From positions 196,744 through 260,743 of the forward strand of contig CP129479.1 of assembly GCA_030583865.1 (NCBI GenBank): a stretch of DNA of 64,000 nucleotides, read 5' to 3'. Below, in pieces: positions 268-61,880 of the stretch. The translations under genes were made by a program, and so were the position numbers. The notes under the pieces were generated by a model. That model worked only from the letters and a program-made list of their open reading frames with translations, ran no database searches and had not been told where the DNA came from. Source of the stretch: Thermodesulfobacteriota bacterium (GTDB lineage: Bacteria > Desulfobacterota > GWC2-55-46). Every line of letters starts with the position of its first letter. Position 1 is the stretch's first letter.

Positions 268-428
268 CAGGCTGCTGAAAAAGTCGTTCTCCGTCGAAGT
301 GCTACGTCGCTCGTAACTCCGGCGTACACGAAAAGTACGCCTCATTCCTCGCTCCCCTGTTTAAACGGGGCCTCGCATCTGGAGCTTTTTGAGCAGCCTG
401 AATAAAAACGGAGTTTTTCAGCAAGCTG
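268..428 (+). repeat. Repeat family A, copy 1
   Basis: Starts 1 nt after the glnK stop: CAGGCTGCTGAAAAAGTC...CGGCGTACACGAAAAGTACGCCTCATTCCTCGCTCCCC...GAGCTTTTTGAGCAGCCTGAATAAAAACGGAGTTTTTCAG. Confidence 0.85.
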
Positions 429-462
429 CTAAGAAGAAAAAAGAGTAACCGAGGAGGAAAAA

Positions 463-1764
463 ATGAAAACCGTAATATACGCTCTTTTGGTCCTTGTTCT
501 GCTGCCGCTTGGGGCCGCTGCGGAGGAAGCGCCATCCATCGATACGGGAGACACGGCCTGGGTGCTCGTGTCCACGGCCTTCGTGCTCCTTATGACCGCG
601 CCCGGGCTCGCGTTATTCTACTCGGGCCTCGTGAGAAGGAAAAACGTCCTTTCAACGATAATGCAGAGCTTTGCCGCGCTCTCGATAGTGAGCATACAGT
701 GGGTGCTCTGGGGCTACAGCCTCTCCTTCGGCCCGGACCGCTGGGGCCTCATAGGCGGGCTCGAGCTCATCGGCCTCAATGGCGTCGGGCCCGAGCCTGG
801 AGGCTACGCGGCTACCATACCCCACCAGGCCTTCATGGTCTTCCAGATGATGTTCGCGGTCATAACCGTCGCCATAATAACCGGCGCTGTCGCGGAGAGG
901 ATGAAGTTTTCTGCCTTCGTTGCCTTCGCGCTCCTCTGGACGACCTTCGTCTACGACCCGCTCGCGCACTGGGTCTGGGGCGGCGGCTGGATAGGGAAGA
1001 TGGGAGCGCTGGATTTCGCGGGCGGCACCGTCGTTCACATAAGCTCGGGGGTGGCCGCGCTTGCAGCGGCCATTGTGACCGGGAGGAGAAAGGGATACGG
1101 GACCGACCTCATGCTGCCGCATAGCCTCCCGCTTACGCTAATCGGCGCCGGGCTTCTCTGGTTCGGCTGGTTCGGCTTCAACGCTGGTAGCGCACTCGGC
1201 GCGAACGGGCTTGCCGCGACCGCCTTCATGGTCACTAACACCGCGGCTGCAGCTGCGGCCCTCTCCTGGATGGCTGTCGAGTGGCTCCACAGGGGAAAGC
1301 CCACGCTCCTGGGCCTTGCCTCGGGCATAGTTGCAGGCCTGGTCGCGATAACGCCCGCAGCCGGCTTCGTGGGCCCGGTATCGTCGATATTTATCGGGCT
1401 TGCAGCCGGTGCGGTCTGTTATCTCGCGGTTACGCGGCTCAAGCCGCTCCTCGGATATGACGACTCGCTCGACGCCTTCGGCATCCACGGCGTCGGCGGC
1501 GTCTGGGGCGCTATCGCGACCGGCCTCTTTGCCTCGACCGCGGTGAATGCGGCCGGAGCTGACGGCCTTTTCTTCGGAGGGGCTGGGGCCGGGCTCCTTC
1601 TTAAACAGCTCATAGCGGTCGGCGCGAGCGCGGCCTACGCCTTTGTCCTCACATTCATAATCCTCAAGGCGCTCGACTGGGCGATCGGCCTCAGGGTCGC
1701 GGAAGAGGACGAGGTGCAGGGGCTCGATATCACCCAGCACAGCGAGAGCGGATATTCGCTTTAG
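463..1764 (+). CDS. amtB: Ammonium transporter Amt
   Basis: 433 aa with signal peptide and multiple TM segments. Amt-family motifs present ([22 protein letters not shown]). RBS GAGGAGG lies upstream of the ATG. Confidence 0.9.
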
Positions 1765-1780
1765 GGGCGCGGCTAAGCCT

Positions 1781-2428
1781 TCAGCCGTGGTTACGGGCCC
1801 TGGATATGAGCGCCGATATCGATGCCGCCTTGGCCTTTATGCTCGGCGCAAGGAGTATGTCGGATATAAGCGCGGCTGAACAGGCGCCGGATTCCAGGAC
1901 AGATACTATCGTTTCCCCTGTTATGCCGCCGATTGCGACCACCGGTATGTGCACGCTCGCGGAGACCTCCTTGAGCCCCGATAATCCCTTCGGCGTGTCC
2001 GCGTCTGTTTTAGTCCTTGTGGGGAATATGGGGCCGAACGAGATGTAGTCCGCTCCTCCGGCCTCGGCCTTTTTCGCCTCTTCGCGGTTGTGGGTGGATA
2101 CGCCTATTACCGAAGAGGGGAGGAGCCTCCTTGCGTCCTTCAGCGGTATGTCGTCCTGGCCGAGGTGCACCCCTTCGGCAGAGGCCATGAGGGCTATGTC
2201 GATCCTGTCGTTTACGATGAAGATGGCCCTTCCCGCAAGGGCCTTCCTCATCTCCAGCGCCGCCCTGAGCATGGCGCCGCTCGTTTCCCCCTTTGCCCGG
2301 AGCTGCACGATCCTTGCGCCGCCAGAGGCGAGCTCGTCAGCGCATTCGCCCGCCCTTTCAAGGCTCACGTAGGCCGAATCGACAATGGCGTACAGGCCCG
2401 AGATGAACGTGGGATGAGAGTTCTTCAT
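1781..2428 (-). CDS. thiE: Thiamine-phosphate synthase
   Basis: 215 aa with YAIVD...LRAK...VNDRIDIA...GVHLGQDD...GADYISFGPIFPTRTK...VVAIGGI motifs. Its start overlaps the upstream stop by 2 nt. Confidence 0.85.
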   Translation of the reverse strand: MKNSHPTFISGLYAIVDSAYVSLERAGECADELASGGARIVQLRAKGETSGAMLRAALEMRKALAGRAIFIVNDRIDIALMASAEGVHLGQDDIPLKDARRLLPSSVIGVSTHNREEAKKAEAGGADYISFGPIFPTRTKTDADTPKGLSGLKEVSASVHIPVVAIGGITGETIVSVLESGACSAALISDILLAPSIKAKAASISALISRARNHG

Positions 2429-3855
2429 CCTTTGAGCTTCCCCATGCTTATATCGAGCTCCCGTATCTTCTTCCGAAGGGTGTTCCTGTTTATGCCGAGC
2501 ATCTCCGCGGCCTGCACCTGGTTGCCCCTGGTCTTCTCCAGCACAAGCTTTATGAGGGGCCTTTCCATGTACGGCATGATGAAGGAGTAGAGCTCCTGCC
2601 TTGAGCGGTGGTCCGTCTTGTCGATGATGGGCCTCAGGCGCGCGGCAATCATGTCCTCGATGGACTCTTCCCTCCTTGCCCGCTTCTCCGGGAGGGCAAG
2701 GTCTTCGTCCTTGATGCTGACGCTCCGCGACATCAGGACGGCCCGCCTTACGGTGTTCTCAAGCTCACGGACGTTCCCGGGCCACTGGTAGGCCTCGAGC
2801 GCCTCGAGGGCGGATCCGTCGAACGACCTCGGCCCGCAGTTGAATTCCCTGCTGAACTTCTCGAGGAAGTGCTGCGAAAGCACCGCGACGTCTCCCCTCC
2901 GGTCGCGTAGCGGCGGAAGAGTAAGCGTTATGCCGTTGAGCCTGAACAGGAGGTCCTCCCTGAAGCCCCCCCCGGCAACGGCCTTTTCAAGGTCCTGGTT
3001 GGTGGCCGCTATTATCCGGACATCCACGCGCACCGGCTCCCTGCCGCCAACGCGGTAGAACTCCCTCTCCTGTATGACGCGCAGAAGCCGCGCCTGCAGG
3101 TCCGGGCTCATGTCGCCTACCTCGTCGAGAAAAAGGGTGCCTTTGTCGGCAAGCTCGAACTTCCCTTTTTTCGATTCGACAGCGCCGGTAAAGGCACCCT
3201 TTTCGAAGCCGAAGAGCTCGCTCTCCATGAGGTCCCTGGGCACTGCCGCGGTGTTTACGGCAACGAAGGGGCCCTCGGCCCTCGGGCTGTTCACGTGGAT
3301 GAGCCGCGCAAGCAGCTCCTTGCCCGTGCCGCTCTCGCCGAGGACGAGGACGGTAACGTCCCTCGCGGCGACCTTCCCGGCCTTCTTGAAGACCTCCTCC
3401 ACGGCCTTGCTCTTCCCGATGAAGACGGTCTCGTCCGAGAGCTTCTGGAGGAGCCTTTCCTTCAGGGTAGAGACCTTTTCCTTGAGCCTCGAGTTCTCGA
3501 TTGCCCGCTCGACAGTGAGCTCCACCTCGGCGAGGTCAAAGGGCTTGGTTATGTAGTCGAAGGCGCCGAGCTTCATGGCCTCGAGAGTGTTCTTCATGCT
3601 CGGCTCGGCGGTCATTATGATGAAGGAAGCGCCGAGGCCGGCTTCCCGCGCCTCTGTAAGGAGCTTCAAGCCGTCCTTGCCCGGCATGTTTATGTCAAGG
3701 AGGGCGAGAGAGACCTCCTGCCCCGAAAGTATCTTCCAGGCCTCGCCGCCGTCCGAGGCCCTGACCACATCAAGCCCCTTCTCCCTGAGAAACCTCTCCA
3801 GCACCCATAATACGCTCTCGTCGTCGTCCGCAACGAGCACCCTTTCCGCGCTCAT
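2425..3855 (-). CDS. Sigma-54-dependent response regulator (NtrC/NtrX-like): receiver, AAA+ and Fis HTH domains
   Basis: Receiver domain begins LVADDDESVLWVL. AAA+ domain has the Walker A motif GESGTGKE and the GAFTGA motif. C-terminal Fis-type HTH is present. Confidence 0.9.
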   Translation of the reverse strand: MSAERVLVADDDESVLWVLERFLREKGLDVVRASDGGEAWKILSGQEVSLALLDINMPGKDGLKLLTEAREAGLGASFIIMTAEPSMKNTLEAMKLGAFDYITKPFDLAEVELTVERAIENSRLKEKVSTLKERLLQKLSDETVFIGKSKAVEEVFKKAGKVAARDVTVLVLGESGTGKELLARLIHVNSPRAEGPFVAVNTAAVPRDLMESELFGFEKGAFTGAVESKKGKFELADKGTLFLDEVGDMSPDLQARLLRVIQEREFYRVGGREPVRVDVRIIAATNQDLEKAVAGGGFREDLLFRLNGITLTLPPLRDRRGDVAVLSQHFLEKFSREFNCGPRSFDGSALEALEAYQWPGNVRELENTVRRAVLMSRSVSIKDEDLALPEKRARREESIEDMIAARLRPIIDKTDHRSRQELYSFIMPYMERPLIKLVLEKTRGNQVQAAEMLGINRNTLRKKIRELDISMGKLKG

Positions 3856-4946
3856 CCCGCCCCCCTGTCCTCTACCGGGAGATAGACAAGGACCGAGGTG
3901 CCTTCTCCCTGCTCTGAAGCTATCTTCAAGTGACCGCCGTGCTCTTTGATTATTTTAAGGGTGATTGCCATGCCGAGGCCGCTCCCCCTGGGCTTTGTGC
4001 TGAAAAAGGGCGTAAAGACGTTTTCAAGGTCTTCGGGCTTTATCCCGCACCCGGTGTCCCGGACCTCTACGGATACCATGCGGCCCGTGCCGCCCTCGCC
4101 CATGTGGAATTCGGTTATGGCCCTTGTAGAGACGCTCACGATGCCGCTCTCCGAGACGGCCTCGATCGCGTTCTTTACCAGGTTGAGGAAGACCTGCTTG
4201 AGCTGCCCCTCGTCCCCGGCGACCTCCGGGATGCTCGGGTCGTAGCTCTTTACGAAGGCGCAGCGCCCTGCCCCCTCTCCGAGGAGGAGGACCACGGAGT
4301 CGAGCACCTGGTGTATGTTGACCGGCTTTTTAACGAGCCTGGCGGGCCTTGCGAAGTCGAGCATCTCGTTAAGTATGCCGTTCAGGCGGTCGGCCTCTTT
4401 TATGATCACTTCCATGTATTCGTTGAGGCCCTTGTCAGGGGCCTTCCTCGAGAGGAGCTGGGCGGCGCCCCTTATTCCGCTAAGCGGGTTTCTTATCTCG
4501 TGCGCGAGGTTTGCGGCGAAGGCGCCTATGTACGCGAGCCGCTCCTTCCGGAGGGCGCTCGTTTCGAGGGGCTTTATGCCCGAGAGGTCTTTCAATAACG
4601 CAACGGCCCCCCTCAGGCCGCCTTCGGGGTCGAAGACGAGGCTTGTGGTCACGCTCACCGGCAAGGCGTCGCCTGTGATCCTCCTCCAGAGCTTCTCTTC
4701 GTACTCGGCGAAGATGCGACCCTTGGCCAATGTTTCCCGGAGCATCTCGGCTATGCGCGGGTTCCGCTTTAAGCATGCGTCAAGCGGCTTGCCGAGCACA
4801 AAGGAACGCGAAAGCTCGGTCATCTTTTCAGCCGATTGGTTGAAGACGCAGACTTCCATGTCCGGGCCGACGGCGATCACGCCCTCGGCCAGGCTTTCGA
4901 GTATGTCTTCCAGGGAAAGCTGGGATGGGTGGGTAGTCATGCGCAC
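3852..4946 (-). CDS. Sensor histidine kinase (PAS-HisKA-HATPase; NtrB/NtrY-like)
   Basis: PAS region followed by an H-box (AHEIRNPLSGI) and N/G boxes (DTGCGI, GSGLGMAI). It overlaps the downstream response-regulator gene by 4 nt (ATGA). Confidence 0.85.
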   Translation of the reverse strand: MRMTTHPSQLSLEDILESLAEGVIAVGPDMEVCVFNQSAEKMTELSRSFVLGKPLDACLKRNPRIAEMLRETLAKGRIFAEYEEKLWRRITGDALPVSVTTSLVFDPEGGLRGAVALLKDLSGIKPLETSALRKERLAYIGAFAANLAHEIRNPLSGIRGAAQLLSRKAPDKGLNEYMEVIIKEADRLNGILNEMLDFARPARLVKKPVNIHQVLDSVVLLLGEGAGRCAFVKSYDPSIPEVAGDEGQLKQVFLNLVKNAIEAVSESGIVSVSTRAITEFHMGEGGTGRMVSVEVRDTGCGIKPEDLENVFTPFFSTKPRGSGLGMAITLKIIKEHGGHLKIASEQGEGTSVLVYLPVEDRGAG

Positions 4947-5077
4947 TCTGCCTATTTATTAGGCAATGATAGCAGGGCCGCTCTATAAACGCAACGGAAA
5001 ACAAGGGGATAGGGAATGGGACCCGGAGAAATGCAATAGTGATTGTTTTCTGTTCCTCCCGAAAGCATAATGTCTCC

Positions 5078-5482
5078 ATGCGCGAGATGTCCGCAGGAAT
5101 AATCATAAAGGACAAGAAGGTGCTCCTCGTACATAACGTGAAGCACGGGCTGAGGGTCGAGCCTCCGGGCGGAAAAAAACTGTCAGACGAGGGCTGGGAG
5201 GAATCGGTCACGAGGGAGATACGGGAAGAGCTCGGGGCGGAGGTGCGGGTCACAGGGCTGTTCGGCGAATACAGGACCCATTCGCCCGAGGGGGATTTCA
5301 TTGTCAGGATGTATTTCTGCGAAATAGTTTCCGGAGTACCCAGGATAATGGAGCCGGAAAAAATACCCTCATTCGGGTGGTATTCCCTTGAAGACCTGAA
5401 AAGGCTCTCAAGCGAGGGCACGCTCGTCCCTAACATGCGTCTTGCCCTGGACGATTTTGAGGGCCTCTTGTCCGGGAAATAA
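5078..5482 (+). CDS. NUDIX hydrolase
   Basis: Nudix box REIREELGAEV. The ORF is GTG-initiated at 5039 and the first in-frame ATG is at 5078. A rho-independent terminator follows directly. Confidence 0.75.
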   Translation: MREMSAGIIIKDKKVLLVHNVKHGLRVEPPGGKKLSDEGWEESVTREIREELGAEVRVTGLFGEYRTHSPEGDFIVRMYFCEIVSGVPRIMEPEKIPSFGWYSLEDLKRLSSEGTLVPNMRLALDDFEGLLSGK

Positions 5483-5486
5483 AAAA

Positions 5487-5515
5487 GCCCCGCCTTGAAG
5501 GCGGGGCTTTTTTTA
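5487..5515 (+). terminator. Rho-independent terminator (GCCCCGCC-loop-GGCGGGGC followed by T7)
   Basis: Perfect 8-bp GC stem followed by TTTTTTT, immediately after the NUDIX stop codon. Confidence 0.85.
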
Positions 5516-5517
5516 TG

Positions 5518-5612
5518 AGCTGGGTGTTGAAAAAACACCCCGCTAATCAATCAACGGATGGACTGCAAAACTGCGAAGACCATCCAGGTCGAGCAATTTG
5601 CGAGGCTTGGAC
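5518..5612 (+). repeat. Repeat family C, copy 1 (~90 bp structured element starting with the GGGTGTTGAAAAACACCC hairpin)
   Basis: About 85% identical to 9286..9367. Contains an inverted repeat CAAATTGC...GCAATTTG. Confidence 0.8.
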
Positions 5613-5737
5613 TAGATTCTCCGAGGCGCTCGCCAAGCAACGCGCGGAAAGGACCCGAGGCCCCTTTCCGCCTGTTTGCCTGTGGTTCCAATCTGCCCGG
5701 GAGCCCGGCTTTTTGCCAGGCCCTGAACCGGCCTGCG

Positions 5738-6292
5738 TCAGTAGGACTGGCCGGTCTGCCCGGCGTCGCCGCTCATGGTGCCGCCGGCAGCGCCGCCGCC
5801 CGTGGTTCCGCCGTCCATTGCACCCTCACCGCCCGGCATACCTGCAAGCTGCGAATCCACGCTCGCGCGTATGTCGCTGCCGAGGTCGGCAGGGTCGGCC
5901 ACCTCGCCCTCGCGGGCCTGCACCTGGTCGCGGAGCGTCTGTGAGACCATGTCATGGGCGTCGGTATCAGAGAGCCCCCTCTGCATGGCGCTGCTCATGC
6001 TGGCGAGAACGTCCCTAAGGCAAGGGCCGGTGCAGTCGTTGTCAACGGCCGTCTTGGCCAGGTCAGATACGGCCTGGGGGTCCGCGTCGTGCTGGGCGAA
6101 CTCGTTAAGCTGGGGCTCTATTGCGTCGATGTCGGCCTGGGAGAGATCGGTGTTTTCCTGTATCTGCGTCTTGAACTTCTCTACGTCCGCTCCGGCGCCG
6201 GTCCTCTCGCCGGCAGCGTAGGCGGAAGGTGCGGCAACGGCTAATACCAAGCCAAAAGCTGCAGCCAGTCGGAAGAAATTGCTTTTCCTCAT
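5738..6292 (-). CDS. Secreted hypothetical protein (signal peptide; Asp/Gly-rich)
   Basis: Starts MRKSNFFRLAAAFGLVLAVAAPSAYA (signal peptide). RBS GAGGGGGG lies upstream. No recognisable domain. Confidence 0.6.
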   Translation of the reverse strand: MRKSNFFRLAAAFGLVLAVAAPSAYAAGERTGAGADVEKFKTQIQENTDLSQADIDAIEPQLNEFAQHDADPQAVSDLAKTAVDNDCTGPCLRDVLASMSSAMQRGLSDTDAHDMVSQTLRDQVQAREGEVADPADLGSDIRASVDSQLAGMPGGEGAMDGGTTGGGAAGGTMSGDAGQTGQSY

Positions 6293-6378
6293 TTCTGCCC
6301 CCCTCTTTTTAAAGTTGCTGGTTTTTATGCCGCATATAAAAAAGTATATACCAGCATCGGAGGGCGTCAAGGGAGGGC

Positions 6379-6664: not shown

Positions 6665-7699
6665 TCATTTAAAAAGCGCCTTGAGACCCTTCTTATAAGG
6701 GGCCCGCACGACGCCCTTCTCGGTTATTATGCCGGTTACGAGCCTTGCGGGCGTGACGTCGAATGCGGGGTTTCTTACGCCCACGCCCTTCGGGGCTATC
6801 CGCCTCTTCTGTATGTGCGTTACCTCCGAAGGGTCCCTCTCCTCGATGGGGATGAGGTCGCCGTGCGGGGTCTTCAGGTCGATGGTAGAGAGCGGGGCCG
6901 CCACATAGAACGGGATGCCGTGCTCCCTCGCGAGCACCGCGACCGTGTAAGTGCCTATCTTGTTGGCAACGTCCCCGTTCGCGGCTATCCTGTCCGCGCC
7001 GACCACGACCGAGCCTATGAGCCCTTTTTGCATCATGTAGCCGGCCATGTTGTCGGTTATCAGGGTCACGTCTATCCCGTCCTTCTTTAGCTCCCATGCG
7101 GTAAGCCTTGCGCCCTGCAGGAAAGGCCTGGTCTCGTCCGCATATACCTTTATCTTTTTCTTCTGCTCGATAGCGCCCCTTATGACGCCGAGAGCGGTCC
7201 CGTACCCGGCGGTCGCAAGCGCCCCTGCATTGCAATGAGTAAGGACGGCGGAGCCGCTCTTTAGAAGCCTCCCCCCGTGCTTGCCGATAAGTCGGTTTAT
7301 CTCGATATCCTCCCTGTGCATCGTCAAGGCCTCCTTGACGAGCCTCTTCTTGAGTGCCGGCACATCCAGGCCCGGGGAGGATTCCACGACCCCCCTCATC
7401 CGCTCTATCGCCCAGAAGAGGTTCACGGCCGTGGGCCGGGCCGAGGCGATCAGCCCGGTTGCCTTGTCGAACTCCTTCCTGAAGGCCTTCATTCCCCCGG
7501 CCTTTATCCCGAGGGCGCCGAGGGCCGCGCCCATTGCCGCGGCAACGCCTATTGCCGGGGCGCCCCGGACCACCATGTCCTTTATGGCCCCGGCAACGTC
7601 CTTGTGCGAGCGGTATCTCCTGTAAACTTCTTTTTCGGGAAGGAGCCGCTGGTCTATCATCACAACGGAATTGTCCTTCCACTCCACTGTCTTGAACAT
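6665..7699 (-). CDS. mtnA: S-methyl-5-thioribose-1-phosphate isomerase (eIF-2B family)
   Basis: 344 aa. MtnA/eIF2B-family motifs present ([34 protein letters not shown]). Confidence 0.8.
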
Positions 7700-7712
7700 C
7701 GCATTCTCCTAT

Positions 7713-7863
7713 CAGGCTGCTCAAAAAGTCCATCTGCTTCGTTGTCTTCGTCGCTCGTCACTGCGGCGTATACAAAAAATACGCCTCATTCCTCGCTTCT
7801 CGACGCCTCGCATCTGGAGCTTTTTGAGCAGCCTGAATGTGGTTTGAGTTTTTCAGCTAACTG
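7713..7863 (+). repeat. Repeat family A, copy 2 (~150 bp; terminal inverted repeats CAGGCTGCTCAAAAAG / CTTTTTGAGCAGCCTG)
   Basis: Fills the gap between the moeA stop (7869) and the mtnA RBS/start (7699). Internal hairpin CGGCGTATAC...TACGCC. Confidence 0.85.
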
Positions 7864-7868
7864 CCATA

Positions 7869-9107
7869 TCAAAAGGCGGGGACAGCGCTTCCGAGGACTG
7901 TCTCGTCAAATGGCTGCACCTGTACGGTCTCTCCGGCCCTGAACCCCTCCCCGCCCTCCGGGACTATGATAAAGGAGTTTGCCCTGACCATGGTGGATAT
8001 CATGCCCGAGCCCTGGCCGTCAAGCGGGGTGGCGGCAAAGCCTTTTTCCTCGAGAAAGAGCTCGGCCCTTATGAAGTTCATCCTGCCGGGCTTGATCTTC
8101 AGGTCTTTCGTAATGCGCGCCTTGATCGCCCGCCTGAAAAGGTCCTTCCTTCCGGACATCTTGAGAAGAGATGGCCTCACAAACTGCTCGAAAGCCACCA
8201 TCGACGAGACCGGGTTCCCGGGGAGCCCGAAGGCGGGCTTTCCGCCGATAACGCCGAAGGCGAGGGGCTTTCCAGGCTTCATGGCCACCTTCCAGAATAT
8301 CATCGACGAGCCCATCTCCTTCAAGACGTCCTTTACGAAGTCGTAATCGCCGACCGAGACGCCGCCCGAGGACACGATGCAGTCCGAAGACATCGCGGCC
8401 TCGAGCCTTTCGCGAAGGCTCTCCCTCGTGTCCCGCGCTATCCCGAGCTGGACCGGCGCCGCACCTGCGGCCTTTACGAGCGCCGAGAGTGCGTAGCCGT
8501 TGCTGTTCGTTATCTTCCCGAAGCCCGGAGCCTCGAATATGTCCGAGAGCTCGTCGCCCGTCGATATGACGGCCACGCGGGGCCTTTTGTGAACGAAGAC
8601 GAATGGCACGCCGACCGTGGCGAGCATACTCACCTCCGAGGGGCGGATGAGCGCGCCTCTCCCAATGACGGTCTCGCCCGCCTTGAAGTCCTCGCCCTGG
8701 CGCCTTATGTTATCGCCGGGCCGGGCCTGGGCCTTTACGAGTACGTACCCTTCGCCCGGCTCGGTCCTCTCGACCATTATTACCGAGTCCGCGCCCTGAG
8801 GCACGGGCGCGCCGGTCATTATGCGGACAGCGGACCCTCCCGCGACCGGCTCCCCGGGCGTCTGGCCCGCCGGAAGGTCGTAGAGCACCTTGAGCCTGAC
8901 GGGCTTTTCCGGCGAAGCGCCGGAGGTGTCGGCAGCGCGTAGCGCGTAGCCGTCCATGGCGGAGTTGTCCCACGGGGGATTTCCGCCCCTGGCCTTTATG
9001 TCCTCCCCGAGCACCCTGCCGAGCGCCTCCTCAACAGGGACGCTCTCTACACCGAGCGGCCTTATTTCCCTGAGTATGGTCTCGAGGGCTTCTCTTACGG
9101 AGATCAT
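7869..9107 (-). CDS. moeA: Molybdopterin molybdenumtransferase
   Basis: MoeA-family motifs present (SAMDGYA, RIMTGAPVP, GGVSVGDYD, KPGKP). Start taken at MISVREALE. Confidence 0.85.
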   Translation of the reverse strand: MISVREALETILREIRPLGVESVPVEEALGRVLGEDIKARGGNPPWDNSAMDGYALRAADTSGASPEKPVRLKVLYDLPAGQTPGEPVAGGSAVRIMTGAPVPQGADSVIMVERTEPGEGYVLVKAQARPGDNIRRQGEDFKAGETVIGRGALIRPSEVSMLATVGVPFVFVHKRPRVAVISTGDELSDIFEAPGFGKITNSNGYALSALVKAAGAAPVQLGIARDTRESLRERLEAAMSSDCIVSSGGVSVGDYDFVKDVLKEMGSSMIFWKVAMKPGKPLAFGVIGGKPAFGLPGNPVSSMVAFEQFVRPSLLKMSGRKDLFRRAIKARITKDLKIKPGRMNFIRAELFLEEKGFAATPLDGQGSGMISTMVRANSFIIVPEGGEGFRAGETVQVQPFDETVLGSAVPAF

Positions 9108-9122
9108 GACATACCCTTTCAA

Positions 9123-9260
9123 GGCAACTCTCAAAAATTGATCTTTTCCCCGGACTCTTTGTCATGCCTGGAATAAAAATGCTCGCATATTGCCATATAT
9201 GCTCCGCTTTTTATTCCCGGCCTTTTATTGCGGGAAGATCTGCAATTTTTAGAGGTTGCC
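9123..9260 (+). repeat. Repeat family B, copy 1 (~138 bp near-perfect palindromic MITE/ERIC-like element)
   Basis: TIRs GGCAACTCTCAAAAATTGATC / AATTTTTAGAGGTTGCC. Inner inverted repeat GGAATAAAAA...TTTTTATTCC. Lies upstream of the moeA start. Confidence 0.9.
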
Positions 9261-9285
9261 TCAATTTAATCATAGCAGGGTGTTG

Positions 9286-9367
9286 AAAAACACCCTGCTA
9301 TGCAATCCACGGATGGATTGCCAAATTGCGAAGACTATCCAAGTCGAGCAATTTGTGAGGCTTGGAC
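9286..9367 (+). repeat. Repeat family C, copy 2
   Basis: GGGTGTTGAAAAACACCC hairpin plus conserved downstream segment. Matches copy 1 at 5518..5612. Confidence 0.8.
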
Positions 9368-9531
9368 GTATTCATTCCGGCCAAGCCGTAGTTGAAAAAA
9401 TCCAGGAAGGACTTTTTCAACATCCTGATAGTGTAAAACATATCACCATAAGGCTTGCGTGTAAATGGGTAAGAAGATACAGAAGGGCCAGGGAGAGACA
9501 CACTGCTCGAAGGCAGATCAAAAAGAGCTTT

Positions 9532-46049: not shown

Positions 46050-46198
46050 CCTACATCGTAAAGGGGAGTAGCTTGCAATGAACGCCGCCAGCACGGCCAT
46101 CAGGCCCGGCGCCATTGGTTAGCGGAGCTAACAGCGAGACCTTTACCGCGCTTGGGAGGGTTTTCAGCTTCCCGCGGTATAAGGTCTTTTTCTTTAAA

Positions 46199-46336
46199 GG
46201 CAGCTCTAAAAATTGATCTTTTCCCCGGACTCTGTGTCAGGCCGGTAATAAAAATGCTCACATATTGACATATATGCTCCGCTTTTTATTCCCGGCTTCC
46301 TCTATTGCGGGAAAAATCTCTAATTTTAGAGCTGCC
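46199..46336 (+). repeat. Repeat family B, copy 2
   Basis: GGCAGCTCTAAAAATTGATC...TTTTAGAGCTGCC ends with a palindromic core. Ends 34 nt before the htpX ATG. Confidence 0.9.
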
Positions 46337-49386: not shown

Positions 49387-49488
49387 GCGCTACCTCCTCC
49401 ATACCGTTTTCAAGCCCCGCAGGACTTTGCGCAATTTTCCCAAACGCACTTGAAATTTGCAAGTCTTACGGATATGCTCTTATTTATT

Positions 49489-49629
49489 GGCAACCTCTAA
49501 AAATTGACCTGTACCCCGGACCCTGCGTCTGGCCGGGAATAAAAATGCTCACTATTACTCATATATGCTCCGCTTTTTATTCCCGGCCCTCCTTGATTGC
49601 GGGAAAAATCTCCAATTTTGGAGGTTGCC
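49489..49629 (+). repeat. Repeat family B, copy 3
   Basis: TGGCAACCTCTAAAAATTGAC...CCAATTTTGGAGGTTGCC. Ends 28 nt before the cytochrome c ATG. Confidence 0.9.
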
Positions 49630-49657
49630 TGTTGTATTTAAACCAAAAGGAGGCCTT

Positions 49658-50940: not shown

Positions 50941-52131
50941 ATGAAGAGGAAACTTATCTGGACTCTCGCTTTCGCAACTCTCGGTGCCTGCCTGATATCA
51001 GGTGCCGCGGCCCCGGCCCACGCGGAGTACATATTCGGCGACGAGACAAAGGGAGTGAAAATCACGCAGAACGAATCCGACCTGAACATAAGGCTCAGGC
51101 TTCAGCCCAGGTTCGATTTCGGGGACACCATCAAGTCGAAGGACGGCAGCTCCTACGCGAGCGAGAGCGACCTGTATCTGAGGAGGGTGCGCCTTGAGCT
51201 CGGCGGGAATCTCCTTGCCAAGACCCTTAGCTACAACGTCACTCTCAGCGCCGACAAGTGGGACGCCGCCGGGGGCTCCAACGCCAACGTAAGCCTTTTA
51301 TACGCCTACGTGAGGTGGCACGCTGACGACGCGGTAGCCCTGACCGCAGGCAAGGAGAAGCTCCCCTATTCGAGGGTCTCGCTTGCGTCCTCCGCAAGGC
51401 AGCTCCTTGTAGAGAGGCCGGTATCCACAGAAGCCGCAAAGAAGGTATTCGGCAAGACCGACGCCTACTACCAGCCGAAGCTTGCGGCGTCCGGCAAGCT
51501 CGCCGAGGGCGTTTTCGCGTACGAGGCGGCGGTCGCGGACGGCTGGCAGAACGGGGATGCGATACAGACCGGCAGGACCGTCTTCAAGGCAAGCCCGCTC
51601 TACGCGGCAAGGGTCGAGCTCTCGCCGCCTGGATGGGTCGAGAAGTCGAGGAGCGATGCCCACCTCGGCAAGGGGCGGCACCTGACCTTCGGCGCGAACG
51701 TCGTCAACCAGGGCGGCATAGAATACAAGGAAAACGGGTTTGAGGAGGACAGGACTCTCCTCGGCTTCGACATATCGGGCCACCTGAACGGGCTTACCGC
51801 CCAGTTCGAGTACAACGCGTGGGAGGTCGACTCGACCGACCCTGCCGTCGGGACAAGCAAACCCAGGGGCTGGTACGCGCAGGCAGGCTACTTCATAGAC
51901 GGACCGAATATCGAGCCCGTTGCCAGGTACGAGGTCTATGACCAGAACTCGAACGCCGCGGACAAGGATGAGAAGGTAACGACCCTTGGTGTCAACTGGT
52001 ACGGCAAGGGGCACAGCCTGAAGGTAGGGGCGAACTGGGTGCGTCACGAGTACGGCGGGAACGCGAGCGGCAAGCTTGCCAACGCCGACTCCAAGGACCT
52101 TTTCCAGGTGCAGGCCCAGATGTACTTCTAA
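50941..52131 (+). CDS. oprP: Phosphate-selective porin O/P
   Basis: Signal peptide present. Porin_O_P-type beta-barrel ending in F. RBS GGAGGA upstream. Confidence 0.8.
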   Translation: MKRKLIWTLAFATLGACLISGAAAPAHAEYIFGDETKGVKITQNESDLNIRLRLQPRFDFGDTIKSKDGSSYASESDLYLRRVRLELGGNLLAKTLSYNVTLSADKWDAAGGSNANVSLLYAYVRWHADDAVALTAGKEKLPYSRVSLASSARQLLVERPVSTEAAKKVFGKTDAYYQPKLAASGKLAEGVFAYEAAVADGWQNGDAIQTGRTVFKASPLYAARVELSPPGWVEKSRSDAHLGKGRHLTFGANVVNQGGIEYKENGFEEDRTLLGFDISGHLNGLTAQFEYNAWEVDSTDPAVGTSKPRGWYAQAGYFIDGPNIEPVARYEVYDQNSNAADKDEKVTTLGVNWYGKGHSLKVGANWVRHEYGGNASGKLANADSKDLFQVQAQMYF

Positions 52132-52288
52132 CAGGTTGCTGAAAAAGTCCATCTGCGTCGAAGGCTACGTACTTGATACTCCGGCGTACAGGGAAAGTAC
52201 GCCTCATCCTCGCTCCCCTGTTCCAATAAGGCCTCGCATCTGAAGTTTTTTCGGGAGCCTGAATAAACGAAGTTTTTAGCAAGCTAAA
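52132..52288 (+). repeat. Repeat family A, copy 3
   Basis: Starts 1 nt after the porin stop: CAGGTTGCTGAAAAAGTC...CGGCGTACAGGGAAAGTACGCCTCATCCTCGCTCCCC.... Confidence 0.85.
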
Positions 52289-52301
52289 AGTGATTTCAAA
52301 G

Positions 52302-52392
52302 TTTACAGGGCCGCAGACACCCTGTAAATACCCGCGAAAAAGTTGCGGGGCTTTTCATCCGGCAGGGCGGGAGCGTCCACCCTCCCGCCCTG
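52302..52392 (+). promoter_or_regulatory. Structured pstS leader: palindrome TTTACAGGG-N9-CCCTGTAAA followed by two GC hairpins
   Basis: Perfect 9-bp inverted repeat at 52302..52328. Hairpins CCCGC...GCGGG (52331..52350) and CAGGGCGGGAG...CTCCCGCCCTG (52363..52392). Confidence 0.4.
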
Positions 52393-52417
52393 CAAAAAAA
52401 ACGACCAAGGAGAAGAT

Positions 52418-56359: not shown

Positions 56360-56758
56360 TTATTTGCCCGGGCCGGAGACCGTCTCGCCCCCGGCTTTAA
56401 TCCAGGCGTTTATGCCGCCCTCAAGGTCGCGTACTCCCTTGTTGCCTTTCCAGCCGAGGATGCCGCGGGCCGTCTGGCTCCTCTTGCCGGAGCGGCAGTA
56501 GAGGATTACCTGGCCGTCCTCGGGGAGGGGCTCTGCGTTCTCCAGGGTATCCAGCGGCATAAGGACGCTCCCCGGGATGTGCGATTCCGCGTGCTCCTGC
56601 GGGGTGCGGACGTCTATCAGTATCACGCGCTCCCCTCTCTCCATCATGGCCTTCAATTCCCCGGCAGTCACCCTGGCCGGGTCAGCCGCGATTGATACCG
56701 ACGCGAAGCAGGCGATAAGGAACGCGAGGGGGATAGCCGTAAAAAGCAGGTTACGCAT
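56360..56758 (-). CDS. Periplasmic single-domain rhodanese (sulfurtransferase)
   Basis: Signal peptide present. Active-site loop CRSGKRS. Confidence 0.8.
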   Translation of the reverse strand: MRNLLFTAIPLAFLIACFASVSIAADPARVTAGELKAMMERGERVILIDVRTPQEHAESHIPGSVLMPLDTLENAEPLPEDGQVILYCRSGKRSQTARGILGWKGNKGVRDLEGGINAWIKAGGETVSGPGK

Positions 56759-56802
56759 GGCCGCATTATACCAGTTCAGGCCCTGCGGGCAAAGTGTTTT
56801 TT

Positions 56803-56945
56803 GGCAACCTCTAAAAATTGATCTTTTCCCCGGACCCTGGGTAGTTACGGGAATAAAAATGCTCACATATTACTCATATATGCTCCGCTTTTTATTCCCG
56901 GCCTTCCTTGATTGCGGGAAAAATCTCTAATTTTTAGAGGTTGCC
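56803..56945 (+). repeat. Repeat family B, copy 4
   Basis: TGGCAACCTCTAAAAATTGATC...TTTTTAGAGGTTGCC. Lies between the permease stop and the rhodanese start. Confidence 0.9.
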
Positions 56946-56947
56946 TT

Positions 56948-57760
56948 TTATCGGGAAAAGGCCTTGCCGCCAGCGCCTGAAAAGAGCCTCAGGGCGAGGA
57001 GCGCGAAGAACAAGACGCTCAGGGAGGCCACTATGAGAGGGGCCGCCGGCAGGTCGAAGGAATAGGAGAGGATGAGCCCCGAAAGGCTCGCCGCCACGCC
57101 AAGGGCCCAGCCCAGGAGCAGCTGCCATTTGAGCCTGCCTGTTAAAAGCTTTCCTGTGAGCACCGGTATCACCAGGAAAGCGAAGACCTGAAGCACCCCG
57201 GCCATCTGAACGGATTTTACGAGAACGAGCGCGAAGCTCAGGAAGAAAAGGAACTCCCAGGCACCGCCGCCCCGTCCCTCGAAAGAGAGCGAAAGGAACT
57301 TCCTCCTGAACGCGAACTGGAAGAGCCCTATCCCGGAATAGAGCGCGAAGGCCGCGAAAAGCTCACCGGGCGCGACCCACAGTATGCTGCCGTTCAGTAT
57401 GGCCTTGAACTCTTCCATGCCGTGAGGCGTCCTGTCGAGGACGAGCATGCTCGCCGAGAGTGAAAAGATGTAGAGGACGCCTATGAAGGCTTCGATATTG
57501 GCAACCCTCGATATCGTCCTTGAGAAAGAAAGTATGAAGGCCCCCAGCACCGCGAAGCCCAGTGAAAAGGCCGCGCCGCTCCATTCGCCCCATCCCAGAA
57601 AGAACGAGAGCGCGGTCCCGAGCCCGATGAACTGGGCGAGCGAGAGGTCCACGAAAATTATCCCCCTCCGGAGCACATGCACCCCGAAGTAAGCGTGCGC
57701 GATTACGAGGAGCACGCACGCCAGGAAAGGGAAAAGGAGTATGCCGAGGGCCTCCATCAC
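56948..57760 (-). CDS. Metal (Zn/Mn-type) ABC transporter permease, ABC-3 family
   Basis: 270 aa with 8-9 TM segments and a ZnuB-like pattern. Confidence 0.75.
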   Translation of the reverse strand: MMEALGILLFPFLACVLLVIAHAYFGVHVLRRGIIFVDLSLAQFIGLGTALSFFLGWGEWSGAAFSLGFAVLGAFILSFSRTISRVANIEAFIGVLYIFSLSASMLVLDRTPHGMEEFKAILNGSILWVAPGELFAAFALYSGIGLFQFAFRRKFLSLSFEGRGGGAWEFLFFLSFALVLVKSVQMAGVLQVFAFLVIPVLTGKLLTGRLKWQLLLGWALGVAASLSGLILSYSFDLPAAPLIVASLSVLFFALLALRLFSGAGGKAFSR

Positions 57761-57762
57761 CT

Positions 57763-58653
57763 TTAATCTCCGCTTAAATCCTTAACCACCCTGTCCATGA
57801 GGCCGAACCAGTCGTCTATGCCTTTCTGGCTCCCGACCTCGTGGGGCAGGACTATCGCTTTCACGCCGGTCCTCTTCGAGAGGAAGCCGAGGGCCTTGCC
57901 GCCGTGATAGGAGGTGGTAAGGATAGCGTCCGGCCTCTCTTTCGACATCGAATCCACAAGCTCCGCAATGTGCCCGGAGGAGGGCGGGATGCCTGGCCGC
58001 TGCTCTATGTAGCCGGTTATCCTGAAACCGAGGTCCGCCGCCAGGTACTCGAAGAACCTGTGGAAAGCCACATAGCTTTTGCCCTTGAGCCTTCCATCCC
58101 ATTCCTTCCTCCTCTCGGCGAGTTTTTTCTCGAAAGAGGCGAGGTTGGCCATGTAAAGGCCCCCGCTGCCGCTGTCGAGCGCCGAGAGGGCCTCTGCGAT
58201 GCCCCTGGCGACCCTGCCCATTTGAGAGGCCGAGAGGTGGTAATGCGGGTTGCCGAGCGGGTGCACGTCACCCTGGCTCCTGTCGACCCGCTCCTGTATT
58301 TCTATTGGTTTGACGAATTTGGAGCAGTCCAGGTAGCCCGCCTTGCCCGGCTGGATACCGGGATTTCTCGACGACTCGATTATGACCGGAAGATAGCCGA
58401 TTTCCAGGTCCAGGCCGTTGAATATGACGATATCCGCTTTCCTTGCCGCGGCTATCATGCTCGGCCTGGCCTCGATGTAATGCGGGTCCTGGTTCGGTTT
58501 TACGAGCACGGTAACGGTGACCCTGTCTCCGCCGATGTCCTTTGCGACGCTCCCTATCCATGGGAGCGTCGCAAGGACATTAAGCTCGGCGGCTAATGCC
58601 GGGCCTGAAAGGAAAAACATCGTGAAAACGGCCAAGAGAGCCCTTTTAAGCAC
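57763..58653 (-). CDS. Metal ABC transporter substrate-binding protein (ZnuA/TroA-like)
   Basis: Signal peptide. Cluster-9 SBP with His-containing metal-site motifs. Confidence 0.75.
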   Translation of the reverse strand: MLKRALLAVFTMFFLSGPALAAELNVLATLPWIGSVAKDIGGDRVTVTVLVKPNQDPHYIEARPSMIAAARKADIVIFNGLDLEIGYLPVIIESSRNPGIQPGKAGYLDCSKFVKPIEIQERVDRSQGDVHPLGNPHYHLSASQMGRVARGIAEALSALDSGSGGLYMANLASFEKKLAERRKEWDGRLKGKSYVAFHRFFEYLAADLGFRITGYIEQRPGIPPSSGHIAELVDSMSKERPDAILTTSYHGGKALGFLSKRTGVKAIVLPHEVGSQKGIDDWFGLMDRVVKDLSGD

Positions 58654-58663
58654 GTATTCCTCC

Positions 58664-59908
58664 TTAGAACTTGTGGGCTGAGTGGGCGCCTATGCCGAAT
58701 ATGGCCTGCAAAAAGACCTCGCGGTTCGTCTCTCCGCCGCTTAAGCTCCTGTCGTGGTTATACTGGAGCCTGAGCCTCGTGAACTCGGAGGGGTTGTATT
58801 CGATTGCGGCAGTCGCCCTCCAGGGGTCGTTCCCGAAGTCCACAGGCTCGCCGTCGAGGATGTATTTGTCCTTAAAGAGCCCGAGGCCGTCGTATCTCGC
58901 GCCCAGCCTCCATCTGTCGACCCGGTACACGGCCTGTACATAGTAGCCGTCCTGCTTTCTCTCCAGCCCCTCAAGAGTCAAAAGGTTTCCGTCGTCGTCG
59001 AATTCCGACAGGTCGCCGTCCTGGTCCCTGTAGAGGTATTCGGCCTGGAGTTTGAAGGCCCTTTTTTCCGAAGGCGTCAATTTATAGGTGAGCTCAAGGC
59101 CCCATAGGGTGGAATCGCCCTCGAACCCGGTGTTTTCCCCGATGGAGCCGGTATTGGTCTTGCCAAAGGCTACTGAAGGACCGAAAAGGAGCGTGGACTT
59201 CTCGTCAAGGTCAAGAGACGCCTTCGCGAAAGCCGCATAGGCGCGCGGGCCGGTCGCAGCGTCTTCCCGGAAAAGAACCTCGTTCTCTCCCTGGAGCGCC
59301 TCAAGCCCCAACTCCGCATAGAACGGCAGGGCCGGGAGGTATGTGACCTGGACGCCCTTTTCTATCAGGCCCTCGTCGCCTAAAAAGGCCCTGTAGGGAA
59401 GAGGGGAGTCGGCAAAGTCCCACTGGTGCCGGTGCTGGCCGTTGAGCCTGCCGAAGCCGCTCTTGAACTTGCCGCCCTTGAGCTGCAGTCCCGCCGAAAG
59501 CGCCGTGGTAACGAAGTAAGCCTCCTCGAGCTCCACCTCCTCTTCCGTCACGGGGATCGTGGCGTAGAGGTTGAAATACGGGTCGACCGGCGCGAAGAAG
59601 AAGAGCTCCGCCGATTCGAGGTTGAAGCCCTTCTTATGCTCGAACTCCTCGTGGATATAGCCGGAGATCTCCCGCTCCTCTATCTCCGAAGGCGAGAGGT
59701 TTGAGCCGTAGAAGAAGGTGTCGAGTATGAGCGAGATATTGGGGTTCATGAGCGCGGAACCCCCGAAGAGGCCGCTTGACGCGCGCGAGTCCTTTTCTTG
59801 CGATTTGAGCGCGTCCTCAAGGTTCTTTATCCGGGTCTCGATATCATCGGCGTATGCCGGAAATGCAAGAACCGCCATCAACATGAAAGAGAGCAGGTAT
59901 TTCAACAC
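58664..59908 (-). CDS. Outer-membrane beta-barrel protein associated with the metal-uptake locus
   Basis: Signal peptide present. Acidic, beta-rich sequence with a C-terminal F. Confidence 0.55.
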   Translation of the reverse strand: MLKYLLSFMLMAVLAFPAYADDIETRIKNLEDALKSQEKDSRASSGLFGGSALMNPNISLILDTFFYGSNLSPSEIEEREISGYIHEEFEHKKGFNLESAELFFFAPVDPYFNLYATIPVTEEEVELEEAYFVTTALSAGLQLKGGKFKSGFGRLNGQHRHQWDFADSPLPYRAFLGDEGLIEKGVQVTYLPALPFYAELGLEALQGENEVLFREDAATGPRAYAAFAKASLDLDEKSTLLFGPSVAFGKTNTGSIGENTGFEGDSTLWGLELTYKLTPSEKRAFKLQAEYLYRDQDGDLSEFDDDGNLLTLEGLERKQDGYYVQAVYRVDRWRLGARYDGLGLFKDKYILDGEPVDFGNDPWRATAAIEYNPSEFTRLRLQYNHDRSLSGGETNREVFLQAIFGIGAHSAHKF

Positions 59909-60029
59909 GTTATTCCTCCTCAGCAGGTGAAATAGATGTCCATAGACGGGAAAAGGCGGACGAGCCCGCGCGATTACGGATTACTTCCGCAGCCGGCTAT
60001 GGCGGTTATGTAGGTTCTCTGGCTGGATT

Positions 60030-60293
60030 TCAGAAAAGAGGAGGGGCCCTGACTCTTTTGCGGCTCTGAATCTGAGCGGGCCTGTATATGAAGAAGGCCG
60101 TGGATAGTACGAAGAGGACGGATAAGGCCGGCGCCCACGATGCCGATGACGGCGTAACCGACTGATGGTGAGAGGCTACGGCGCAGACCTGGCAGTCCTT
60201 GTGGACGGCCCCGTCCTCGTGGTGGTGGATGCTCAGGCCGACCCCGGTAAAAAGGAAGACGGCGGCCAGGATTATAAGGAGCTGCCTTCTCAT
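60030..60293 (-). CDS. Small 2-TM protein with His/Cys-rich loop (HHHEDGAVHKDCQVCAVASHH)
   Basis: 87 aa with a metal-binding-like loop between two hydrophobic segments. First gene of the metal-uptake cluster. Confidence 0.5.
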   Translation of the reverse strand: MRRQLLIILAAVFLFTGVGLSIHHHEDGAVHKDCQVCAVASHHQSVTPSSASWAPALSVLFVLSTAFFIYRPAQIQSRKRVRAPPLF

Positions 60294-60515
60294 GACCGCG
60301 CCATTTTAGTTTACGCGGCCACTGCTGTCAACCGGAACCGGAAGCTCAGCTTCGGGAATCCATTTTTTCTGCACTGCCCCGCTTCCTTGACAATCCACCC
60401 TTGTGTGTTAGGGTTTTAAGTGAGAGCCGCATTCCGGGCGTGTCTACGCGTTCCCTCAGGAGGAGCGCGCCAGTTCAATCAATCTCGGTTTTTTTGAAAA
60501 GACAGGGGGTATGGC

Positions 60516-60923
60516 TTGAGCGCTGCTGCCCAATACGCGCCGCTTTGGCCGCTTGCCGTCTATTTCGTCGGGGTAGTCCTCCTCGTCGGGGCCATGCTCG
60601 TCCTCTCCCATGTGCTTGGCGAGCGGAGGAGGGAAAGGCTCACCTCCGTCCCCTATGAGTCCGGTGTCGTAGCGACCGGCTCGGCCCGCCTACATTTCGA
60701 CGTGAAATTCTACATGGTAGCCATGTTCTTCGTGATCTTCGACATGGAAGCCGTCTTCGTATTCGCCTGGGCCGTTTCCGCACGCGAAGCAGGCTGGGCC
60801 GGATATATCGAGATGCTAATCTTCATAGGGATACTGCTTGCCGCGCTCTTTTATCTATGGAAGCTCGGGGCCCTCGAATGGGGCACCTCCATGAAGATAA
60901 GGAGGAAGACAGAGCCTCTCTGA
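60516..60923 (+). CDS. nuoA: NADH-quinone oxidoreductase subunit A
   Basis: 3-TM NuoA-like protein. TTG start with a GGGGG RBS. Confidence 0.8.
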   Translation: MSAAAQYAPLWPLAVYFVGVVLLVGAMLVLSHVLGERRRERLTSVPYESGVVATGSARLHFDVKFYMVAMFFVIFDMEAVFVFAWAVSAREAGWAGYIEMLIFIGILLAALFYLWKLGALEWGTSMKIRRKTEPL

Positions 60924-60944
60924 AAATATCAAAGGGGGCGGGTC

Positions 60945-61556
60945 ATGCGGTTGAATACCGGGCATGCGGAGATGCCGGCGGGCGTGGAAGCGCAGCGCCG
61001 GAACTTTTTGCTTACGAAGCTCGAAGACATGGTGGCATGGGGCAGGAAGAACTCCCTGTGGCCGCTTAACTTCGGGCTTTCGTGCTGCTATATAGAGATG
61101 GCCGCGAGCATAACGAGCAGGCACGATATCGCGCGCTTCGGCGCCGAGGTCCTCCGGTCAAGCCCCAGGGAGGCGGACCTAATGATAGTGGCAGGCACCG
61201 TGTTCGTAAAGGTGGCGCCCATGGTAAAGAGGGTCTACGAGCAGATGATGGCCCCCAAATGGGTGATCTCAATGGGCTCGTGCGCGAACTCCGGCGGCAT
61301 GTACGACATATATAGCGTTGTCCAGGGCGTTGACTCGATACTGCCGGTCGACGTCTATGTGCCGGGATGCCCGCCGAGACCGGAGGCGCTCACTGAGGGG
61401 CTCATCCTACTTCAGAAGAGGATAGCCGCGGAGAGGAAACCCCTTACATGGATAACGGGTGAAGCCGAAACGAGGGGAAAAAAGCTCCCGGTCATGCGGG
61501 AGCAAAAAGGCTGGAGGAAAGAGGCGACCACGTTAAGGGAGCCTGACGAGGCCTGA
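60945..61556 (+). CDS. nuoB: NADH-quinone oxidoreductase subunit B
   Basis: Fe-S cluster motifs ([21 protein letters not shown]). Confidence 0.9.
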
Positions 61557-61560
61557 AAAA

Positions 61561-61694
61561 TGGCAGCCTCTAAAAATTGATCTTTTCCCCGGACTCTGCG
61601 TCAGTCCGGGAATAAAAATGCTCACATATTGCCATATATGCTCCGCTTTTTATTCCCGGCCTTCCGGGAAAAGCGGGAAAAATCTCTAATTTTC
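61561..61694 (+). repeat. Repeat family B, copy 5
   Basis: TGGCAGCCTCTAAAAATTGATC...TTTTCAGAGGGTTGCC. Starts 5 nt after the nuoB stop. Confidence 0.9.
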
Positions 61695-61753
61695 AGAGGG
61701 TTGCCATTAATTTACGCTCGTTTCGGCCATCCGTTCAGGCCCTTAAGCCTCAT

Positions 61754-61880
61754 CAGGGTAGCATAACGTCTTCAAAATTGGCAACTCCGGCGTACAATAA
61801 AAGTACGCCTCATTCCTCCTAATTCGACTCCTTGCATCTTGAGCTTTTTGAGCCGCCTGAATATGATTTTAAATAAGCTT
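61754..61880 (+). repeat. Repeat family A, copy 4 (5' arm degenerate)
   Basis: CCGGCGTACAATAAAAGTACGCCTCATTCCTCC...GAGCTTTTTGAGCCGCCTGAATATG. Ends 16 nt before the nuoC ATG. Confidence 0.7.

Follow-up and report, generated by a model that had tools for sequence, protein, structure and literature searches.

How does a small repeat come to fit exactly into the gaps between the genes of an operon? The window, i.e., the whole stretch of 64,000 nucleotides analyzed here (contig CP129479.1 of GenBank assembly GCA_030583865.1, positions 196,744 to 260,743 of the forward strand; Thermodesulfobacteriota bacterium, lineage GWC2-55-46), contains four copies, A1 to A4, of such a repeat, designated family A, and an earlier sequence-only reading proposed that they are elements tolerated or selected within messenger RNAs (mRNAs), like REP/BIME repeats or intercistronic RNA regulators. 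Family A is a previously undescribed MITE family (MITE, miniature inverted-repeat transposable element) whose target-site duplication is like that of the insertion sequence (IS) IS5, and it is tolerated in operons and is not a selected regulator. It is very probable that these elements are non-autonomous MITEs inserting at the tetranucleotide YTAR and that their fit next to stop codons results from landing and survival, not from a dedicated role in RNA regulation. What stands of the earlier interpretation is the notion of dispersed palindromic intergenic repeats tolerated in operons, loosely resembling REP/BIME, ERIC, and Correia elements; the selected RNA regulator does not stand.

All four copies in the window were found again by alignment and by nhmmer (E 1e-46 to 9e-21) with a profile of full copies, mostly those of other genomes, and their features are as follows.

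268..428, plus strand: copy A1, full, 161 bp, in the glnK (P-II)–amtB gap, sense; nhmmer model 1–151, E 4.7e-43
264..267: left flank of A1, GTGA, spanning the glnK stop codon TGA; a degenerate copy of the target-site duplication
268..283, plus strand: left terminal inverted repeat of A1, CAGGCTGCTGAAAAAG, identical to the family consensus
321..353, plus strand: conserved core of A1, hairpin GGCGTAC-N7-GTACGCC, then the box TCATTCCTCGCT
385..400, plus strand: internal right arm of A1 (R1), CTTTTTGAGCAGCCTG, which forms a long hairpin by pairing with the left arm
413..428, plus strand: terminal right arm of A1 (R2), GTTTTTCAGCAAGCTG, the true end of the element, previously called a 3′ tail
429..432: right flank of A1, CTAA, YTAR target-site duplication
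7713..7863, plus strand: copy A2, full, 151 bp, in the moeA–mtnA gap, antisense; nhmmer E 1.8e-46
7709..7712 and 7864..7867: flanks of A2, CTAT and CCAT
52132..52283, plus strand: copy A3, directly 3′ of the oprP stop codon; nhmmer match 52132–52285, E 7.5e-32
52128..52131 and 52284..52287: perfect target-site duplication of A3, CTAA/CTAA, the left copy being the source of the oprP stop codon
61767..61866, plus strand: copy A4, truncated relic in the nuoB–nuoCD gap; nhmmer model 31–130 only, E 9.2e-21

As the sequence-only reading held, two copies begin right after stop codons, A1 after the glnK TGA (265–267) and A3 after the oprP TAA (52129–52131); the 16-nt arms, the GGCGTAC/GTACGCC hairpin, and the TCATTCCTCGCT box were likewise confirmed at their mapped window coordinates, and the names given to the flanking genes proved correct by Pfam (P-II/AmtB, MoeA/MtnA of the IF-2B family, phosphate porin/PstS, and NuoB/NuoCD). 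The shared architecture does not extend to A4, which lacks the left arm and R2, keeps the core (61789–61820) and R1 (61844–61859), and belongs to another subfamily; in A3, R1 is degenerate and R2 is short of its last 3 nt, and A2 has the compensatory hairpin variant GGCGTAT/ATACGCC. The supposed AU-rich hairpin of the 3′ tail was not borne out: no conserved hairpin is present there, and the tail repeats the right arm. Nor do all copies end just before the next ribosome-binding site (RBS), since A3 ends 130 nt short of pstS with a terminator-like hairpin between, and A2 does adjoin the mtnA RBS but by its left end, MoeA (7869–9134) and MtnA (6665–7699) both being encoded on the minus strand according to Pfam analysis of the A2 neighbors. 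A2 is therefore antisense to its operon, even though it shares the DNA strand of A1, A3, and A4. The spacer between A3 and pstS (52288–52417) contains three GC-rich hairpins, one of them terminator-like (52331–52349, then a T-run); oprP and pstS may therefore be separate transcripts, with A3 in the 3′ untranslated region of oprP.

The wider family was collected by scanning species-representative genomes once for the core pattern, which yielded at least 120 loci (numbered below with the prefix L) from 22 assemblies, the genome of the window itself not being among them. In the window and these loci, nhmmer detected at least 169 copies at E<1e-8, i.e., at least 165 beyond the four window copies, and A1 is 84–92% identical to copies in other genomes (megablast). 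The host assemblies are nearly all metagenome-assembled genomes (MAGs) of uncultured “Deltaproteobacteria”/Thermodesulfobacteriota from groundwater and sediment. No family A copies were found on PLSDB plasmids by blastn or on IMG/VR viral contigs by two pattern scans, and the literature searched yielded neither an account of the arm and core sequences nor a MITE described from these taxa. Relatives that keep the core and the subterminal blocks were also observed in other lineages, at L002 (~6905–7060), L109 (~2340–2500), L042 (~3250–3400), L012, L023, L071, L083, and L096, the hosts being MFD MAGs, LacPavin, ORM2a, Smithella, and a “Bacteriovoracaceae” MAG.

The family A consensus is 151 bp long, and the copies, which are non-coding, measure 148–176 bp, a size that suits a MITE (below ~300 bp), the length differences among subfamilies arising through indels. 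When 152 copies were aligned together with 50-nt flanks, the limits of the element proved sharp, sequence conservation being at background level immediately beyond CAGG... (left) and ...CTG (right). The consensus reads, in order, CAGGCTGCTGAAAAAG (left arm) TCCATCTGC ... GGCGTAC-loop-GTACGCC TCATTCCTCGCT ... GCATCTGGAG CTTTTTGAGCAGCCTG (R1) AAYAAA.... GTTTTTCAGCAAnCTG (R2), so that the right repeat occurs twice in tandem, internally as R1 and terminally as R2. Compared with the reverse complement of the left arm, R1 has a mean of 2.1 and R2 a mean of 4.6 mismatches per 16 nt in 80 copies, and terminal inverted repeats are thus present as in other MITEs; position 10 of R1 is a conserved mismatch, at which R2 agrees with the left arm. 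Subfamilies are distinguished by an optional CCCC...GGGG hairpin, present in A1 and A3, and by other indels, and in the L114 copy a deletion between R1 and R2 fused the two. A “short form” ending at R1 was considered for copies without R2 and rejected, the 4 nt after R1 being the conserved AAYA and not a repeat of the left flank.

The evidence for mobility comes from the flanks and from orthologous sites. The 4 nt on each side of the element have the consensus YTAR, and of 56 strictly full copies, 24 have the same 4 nt on either side and 13 have flanks that agree at three of four positions, compared with 6.7 identical pairs when partners were permuted and 0 when the flanks were shifted outward by 5 nt; a 4-bp target-site duplication is therefore evident. 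Off-consensus targets are duplicated too (GTAG/GTAG, CCAA/CCAA, and CTAT/CTAT). Where the window has the 161-bp element between glnK and amtB, relatives with 80% identical AmtB have an empty site, namely a 27-bp spacer, and glnK ends there in ...CTGTAA; the closest relative, UBA5799 (AmtB 91% identity), carries a repeat of another family, family B, upstream of amtB instead. Two more orthologous pairs are filled in one genome and empty in the other (L089 filled and L022 empty; L069 filled and L010 empty), and family A is thus a multi-copy element that differs in presence among orthologous sites, as is expected of a MITE. Four orthologous sites are occupied in both genomes. For one of them, L074/L094, the insertion must be older than the split of the two species-level genomes because the flanks are nearly identical; the element has diverged along its entire length, with the core hairpin broken in one copy, next to a nearly identical spacer. 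The site at the oprP stop codon is filled in both the window and L114, by different subfamilies, which suggests that the site is a hot spot or that conversion has taken place among copies. Five Logan contigs from independent short-read assemblies with identical AmtB (L121–L125) all begin at one base inside A1 (TAAAAACGGAGTTTTTCAGC...), a break that is expected because the repeat is dispersed.

The alternative that family A is a structured RNA selected within polycistronic mRNAs, acting as a stabilizer, processing site, or regulator in the manner of REP/BIME, with position and orientation kept by selection, is very unlikely given how the copies lie relative to genes, which were called with a codon-usage model after the elements had been masked. 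Three of the four copies in the window lie in plausible operons as sense insertions, and the statement that the orientation is always the same is true of the four window copies (chance 0.125), but the bias is gone in the wider family. In co-directional gene pairs, 41 copies are sense and 37 antisense (p=0.73, all copies), and full copies alone give 17 and 21; A2 itself is antisense, and other copies lie between convergent (20 copies) or divergent (12) gene pairs. The absence of orientation bias, which the sequence-only reading had itself named as grounds for refutation, leaves a selected intercistronic RNA element unsupported, and the mobility apparent from target-site duplications and empty orthologous sites also argues against it, as does the decay of the old orthologous copy along its whole length.

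A further point in favor of a selected RNA is that the copies abut stop codons more often than YTAR sites would lead one to expect. The stop codon of a neighboring gene is inside the duplication in 19 of 66 full copies (left end 11, right end 8), i.e., in 29%, compared with 7.8% expected from the share of stop codons among non-coding-plus-stop YTAR sites, a 3.7-fold excess (p=4e-7). A preference of the left end for stop codons (23 vs 8 in all copies) was rejected, since the counts are 11 vs 8 once the comparison is limited to copies whose R2 end is defined. YTAR is three times rarer in coding DNA (3.3/kb) than in non-coding DNA (9.9/kb), and 19% of stop codons are part of a YTAR. Because YTAR contains TAA/TAG and is rarer in coding DNA, many of the viable targets are stop codons, and this property of the target, together with the loss of harmful insertions, probably accounts for the exact intercistronic fit. 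The striking starts at stop codons inside operons can thus be explained by target choice and purifying selection, without recourse to an RNA function.

The fold of the element could also be taken to favor a selected RNA. The left arm and R1 form a long hairpin that encloses the inner hairpin, with a minimum free energy of −53 kcal/mol for A1 (z −2.7) and −61 kcal/mol for the transcribed strand of A2 (z −7.4), and both sides of the left-arm/R1 stem have changed in a compensatory manner at 13 of 20 pairs, the observed values being reached by 0 of 500 shuffles. Stem covariation is therefore present, but it is equally expected of the terminal repeats of a transposon. Two ends read by one transposase should covary likewise, and a single RNA helix cannot use both R1 and R2; in subfamilies whose arms are altered, complementarity is retained and R2 has followed the left arm too, which fits DNA recognition by a transposase and not a single RNA helix. 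For these reasons, covariation is no argument for an RNA role. RNAalifold applied to 80 copies recovered just the four outermost pairs and the core hairpin (covariation term −0.27), which is no evidence for a specific RNA fold. In Rfam, no family was matched at the gathering score across the whole window, and a permissive scan of A1 gave one chance-level match; in the A1 region, neither a sigma-70-like promoter nor an intrinsic terminator was found. The marks of a structured RNA family, an Rfam match and a fixed orientation, were thus both lacking.

For the MITE, a possible course of insertion can be proposed. A DDE-type transposase supplied in trans may cut the outer ends, and the element would then enter a 4-bp YTAR with duplication of the target, which is the pattern of IS5-type elements (IS701-type elements also give 4 bp). 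If the target is a stop codon, the stop could be preserved by the left-hand duplicate, so that the upstream protein would be unchanged and the downstream RBS intact. Such insertions would be the least harmful and could persist, some of them across species splits. Transcription in either orientation would add a stable long hairpin to the mRNA, a by-product that may alter processing or stability but would not be a selected regulator. IS5 duplicates 4-bp YTAR and prefers non-coding insertion (PMC5009759), and IS701 duplications are exactly 4 bp (PMC2266710), so that the feature shared with IS5, the 4-bp YTAR duplication, is not exclusive. The arms of family A are unlike the ends of E. coli IS5 (GGAAGGTGCGAA...), with no shared terminal repeat in this comparison, and are also unlike the IS701 end consensus. 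Going by the duplication alone, the partner would be of the IS5 or IS701 type.

The degree of conservation along the element bears on this proposal. The core hairpin and the TCATTCCTCGCT box are nearly invariant in the main alignment, a value that is inflated because the scan pattern was the core itself; of 39 bystander copies, included only because their locus also contains an ascertained copy, 7 match the pattern exactly, and most are off by one to three bases. A less biased set of 43 copies gave conservation values of 0.88 for the core, 0.89 for R1, 0.84–0.85 for the subterminal blocks, 0.75 for the left arm, 0.71–0.81 for the interior arms, and 0.46 for R2.

Several findings weigh against the MITE reading. 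The core is conserved like R1 and above the left arm, which a simple decay of the MITE interior does not predict, and R2, the terminal arm, is poorly conserved and missing from many copies. The flanks of A1 (2 of 4 matching) and A2 (3 of 4) are imperfect duplications. In the relatives from other lineages, the outermost arms differ, reading (G)ACGGCTTCGTAAAAAG, CTCCTTTGTAAAAAG, and CAGAGCGTGATAAC, and three of these relatives apparently have direct repeats of 6–9 bp (AAACATT, AAGTTT, and TTAAAACTT) rather than of 4 bp. As for an autonomous partner, no IS-sized pair of family A repeats was found in the ~1 Mb of DNA examined; inverted-repeat pairs 700–2800 bp apart were only neighboring MITE copies or another nested small repeat, and the solitary arms traced in the search for a parent were truncated relics. 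A jackhmmer search with E. coli IS5 InsH against six-frame open reading frames of the ~1 Mb of loci and the window detected no InsH homologue.

The core may be this well conserved because a successful master copy had its sequence, because efficient transposition requires it in cis, or because it functions as cargo. It is unlikely that the core module, i.e., the hairpin and the CU-rich, anti-Shine–Dalgarno-like TCATTCCTCGCT, framed by AAAAAGTCCATCTGC and GCATCTGGAGCTTTTT, is functional cargo of different transposon backbones across the Thermodesulfobacteriota. If it were, the MITE would serve as a vehicle by which a motif, regulatory or structural, is seeded at gene 3′ ends, and the cargo may be either an RNA motif that acts on mRNAs or a site bound by a protein of the host or of the element. 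The related proposal that hairpin and box form a protein-binding site or small RNA module benefiting the element or its host, which we regard as similarly doubtful, would explain why the core is kept across subfamilies, and across lineages in which the outer arms differ and the subterminal blocks persist. The excess of core over left-arm conservation in the less biased sample and the replacement of the hairpin's closing C:G pair by T:A in several subfamilies, among them that of A2, are consistent with such a module, as is the existence of a family, family C, with the same arms and without this core. On the other hand, distant relatives carry the core by construction, since the core was the scan pattern, and the low rate of exact matches among bystander copies, the broken core hairpin in one copy of L074/L094, and the lack of any promoter, terminator, or known RNA family matching the core all speak against cargo, whose constraint a shared master copy can mimic. 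A function at the site of insertion is disfavored because the old orthologous copy in L074/L094 has decayed.

REPs are 20–40 nt long, have neither terminal inverted repeats nor target duplications, are linked to REP-associated tyrosine transposases (RAYTs), and can stabilize upstream mRNA. Family A resembles REP/BIME in being a dispersed intergenic palindrome of high copy number, frequently located within operons and at gene 3′ ends, and its subterminal and central hairpins recall the ends of single-strand transposons. Even so, it is extremely unlikely that family A is a REP/BIME-type repeat moved by RAYT or an IS200/IS605-type palindrome element moving as single-stranded DNA, because such systems leave the target unduplicated and end asymmetrically, with no terminal inverted repeats, in contrast to the 4-bp duplication and 16-nt inverted repeats of family A. 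Furthermore, no GTAG-headed REP unit and no Rfam match to IS605- or IscB-associated RNAs were found. Identity with REP/BIME was rejected on the basis of the ~150-bp unit (not 20–40 nt), the terminal repeats, and the 4-bp duplication, RAYT genes not having been searched for, and identity with IS200/IS605-type elements was rejected because these have no terminal inverted repeats or target duplications.

Correia elements of Neisseria and ERIC elements of Enterobacteriaceae are bacterial MITEs that are co-transcribed with their neighbors (reviews PMC10969869 and PMC3184786). Family A is like them in its length of ~100–160 bp, its non-coding sequence, terminal inverted repeats, short AT-containing target duplication, and many intergenic copies, and also in forming long RNA hairpins on transcription and being tolerated inside operons. 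It differs in sequence, which is unrelated, in its duplication of 4-bp YTAR instead of their TA, and in its tandem right arm, and an IHF site, a promoter, and RNase III processing are not established for it. According to a review (PMC3184786), Chunjie of Geobacter uraniireducens is 178–235 bp long with 21-bp terminal repeats and 9-bp direct repeats, and it is described as likewise a MITE of a “deltaproteobacterium” that left intact the phosphate-uptake operon in which it was found, A3 for its part adjoining pstS. Identity with Chunjie as described there was rejected, since family A has 151–161 bp, 16-nt repeats, and 4-bp YTAR. As a MITE family of uncultured subsurface Thermodesulfobacteriota, undescribed until now, family A is mostly an ordinary finding; unusual are only its tandem right end and conserved core, which raise modest questions about how a transposase recognizes a MITE.

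Two further families of small repeats were found in the window.

9122..9261, 46197..46336, 49488..49630, 56802..56946, and 61561..61705: family B, ~140–150 nt, with terminal inverted repeats (T/A)GGCAACCTCTAAAAATT...AATTTTTAGAGGTTGCC
9276..9427 (full) and 5520..5612 (truncated): family C, with arms CAGGGTGTTGAAAAAC / CTTTTTCAACATCCTG of the family A type

The last family B copy in the window is immediately upstream of A4. Family B copies are 83–97% identical in the H5_GWC MAG, the copy upstream of amtB in UBA5799 occupies L126 1–65, and no clear target duplication was seen for this family. The full copy of family C has an interior unrelated to that of family A and an ATAG/ATAG duplication, with further copies in L048, L069, and L088, and it is probably moved by the same kind of transposase as family A. 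Families A, B, and C mark a lineage with unusually active small transposons and could serve as markers for strain typing and the dating of insertions, and the family A repeats interrupt the short-read assembly of these genomes, doing so at predictable positions.

Several smaller derivatives were also observed. In L022 (~3561–3583), a 25-nt perfect palindrome, TCAACCTCTAAAAATTAGAGGTTGA, consists of two family B arms back to back and is either a minimal element or an excision footprint; the orthologue of its spacer in L089 carries a family A copy. Solitary exact left arms of family A (CAGGCTGCTGAAAAAG) occur directly after stop codons in L078 (7487–7502), L114 (3385–3400), and L066 (3258–3273), with ctaa or ttaa joined to CAGG and no recognizable remainder of the element, and are truncated relics or very short derivatives. 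In some family A copies (L017, L038, L039, L057, L082, L114, L117, and L119; NC_groundwater_1706 MAG), R2 is replaced by another conserved tail, AATATGCATAGCGAGCGCATTCCCCGCAG...CTGCGGGG, which is also found inverted beside other family A copies (L117 and L049) and is probably a further repeat family that makes chimeras with family A. Finally, in L105 (2245–2528 and 437–590), a family A copy is interrupted by a nested ~140-bp insertion of yet another small repeat, whose partner, 1.8 kb distant in inverted orientation, forms a perfect inverted repeat with it over 50 nt.

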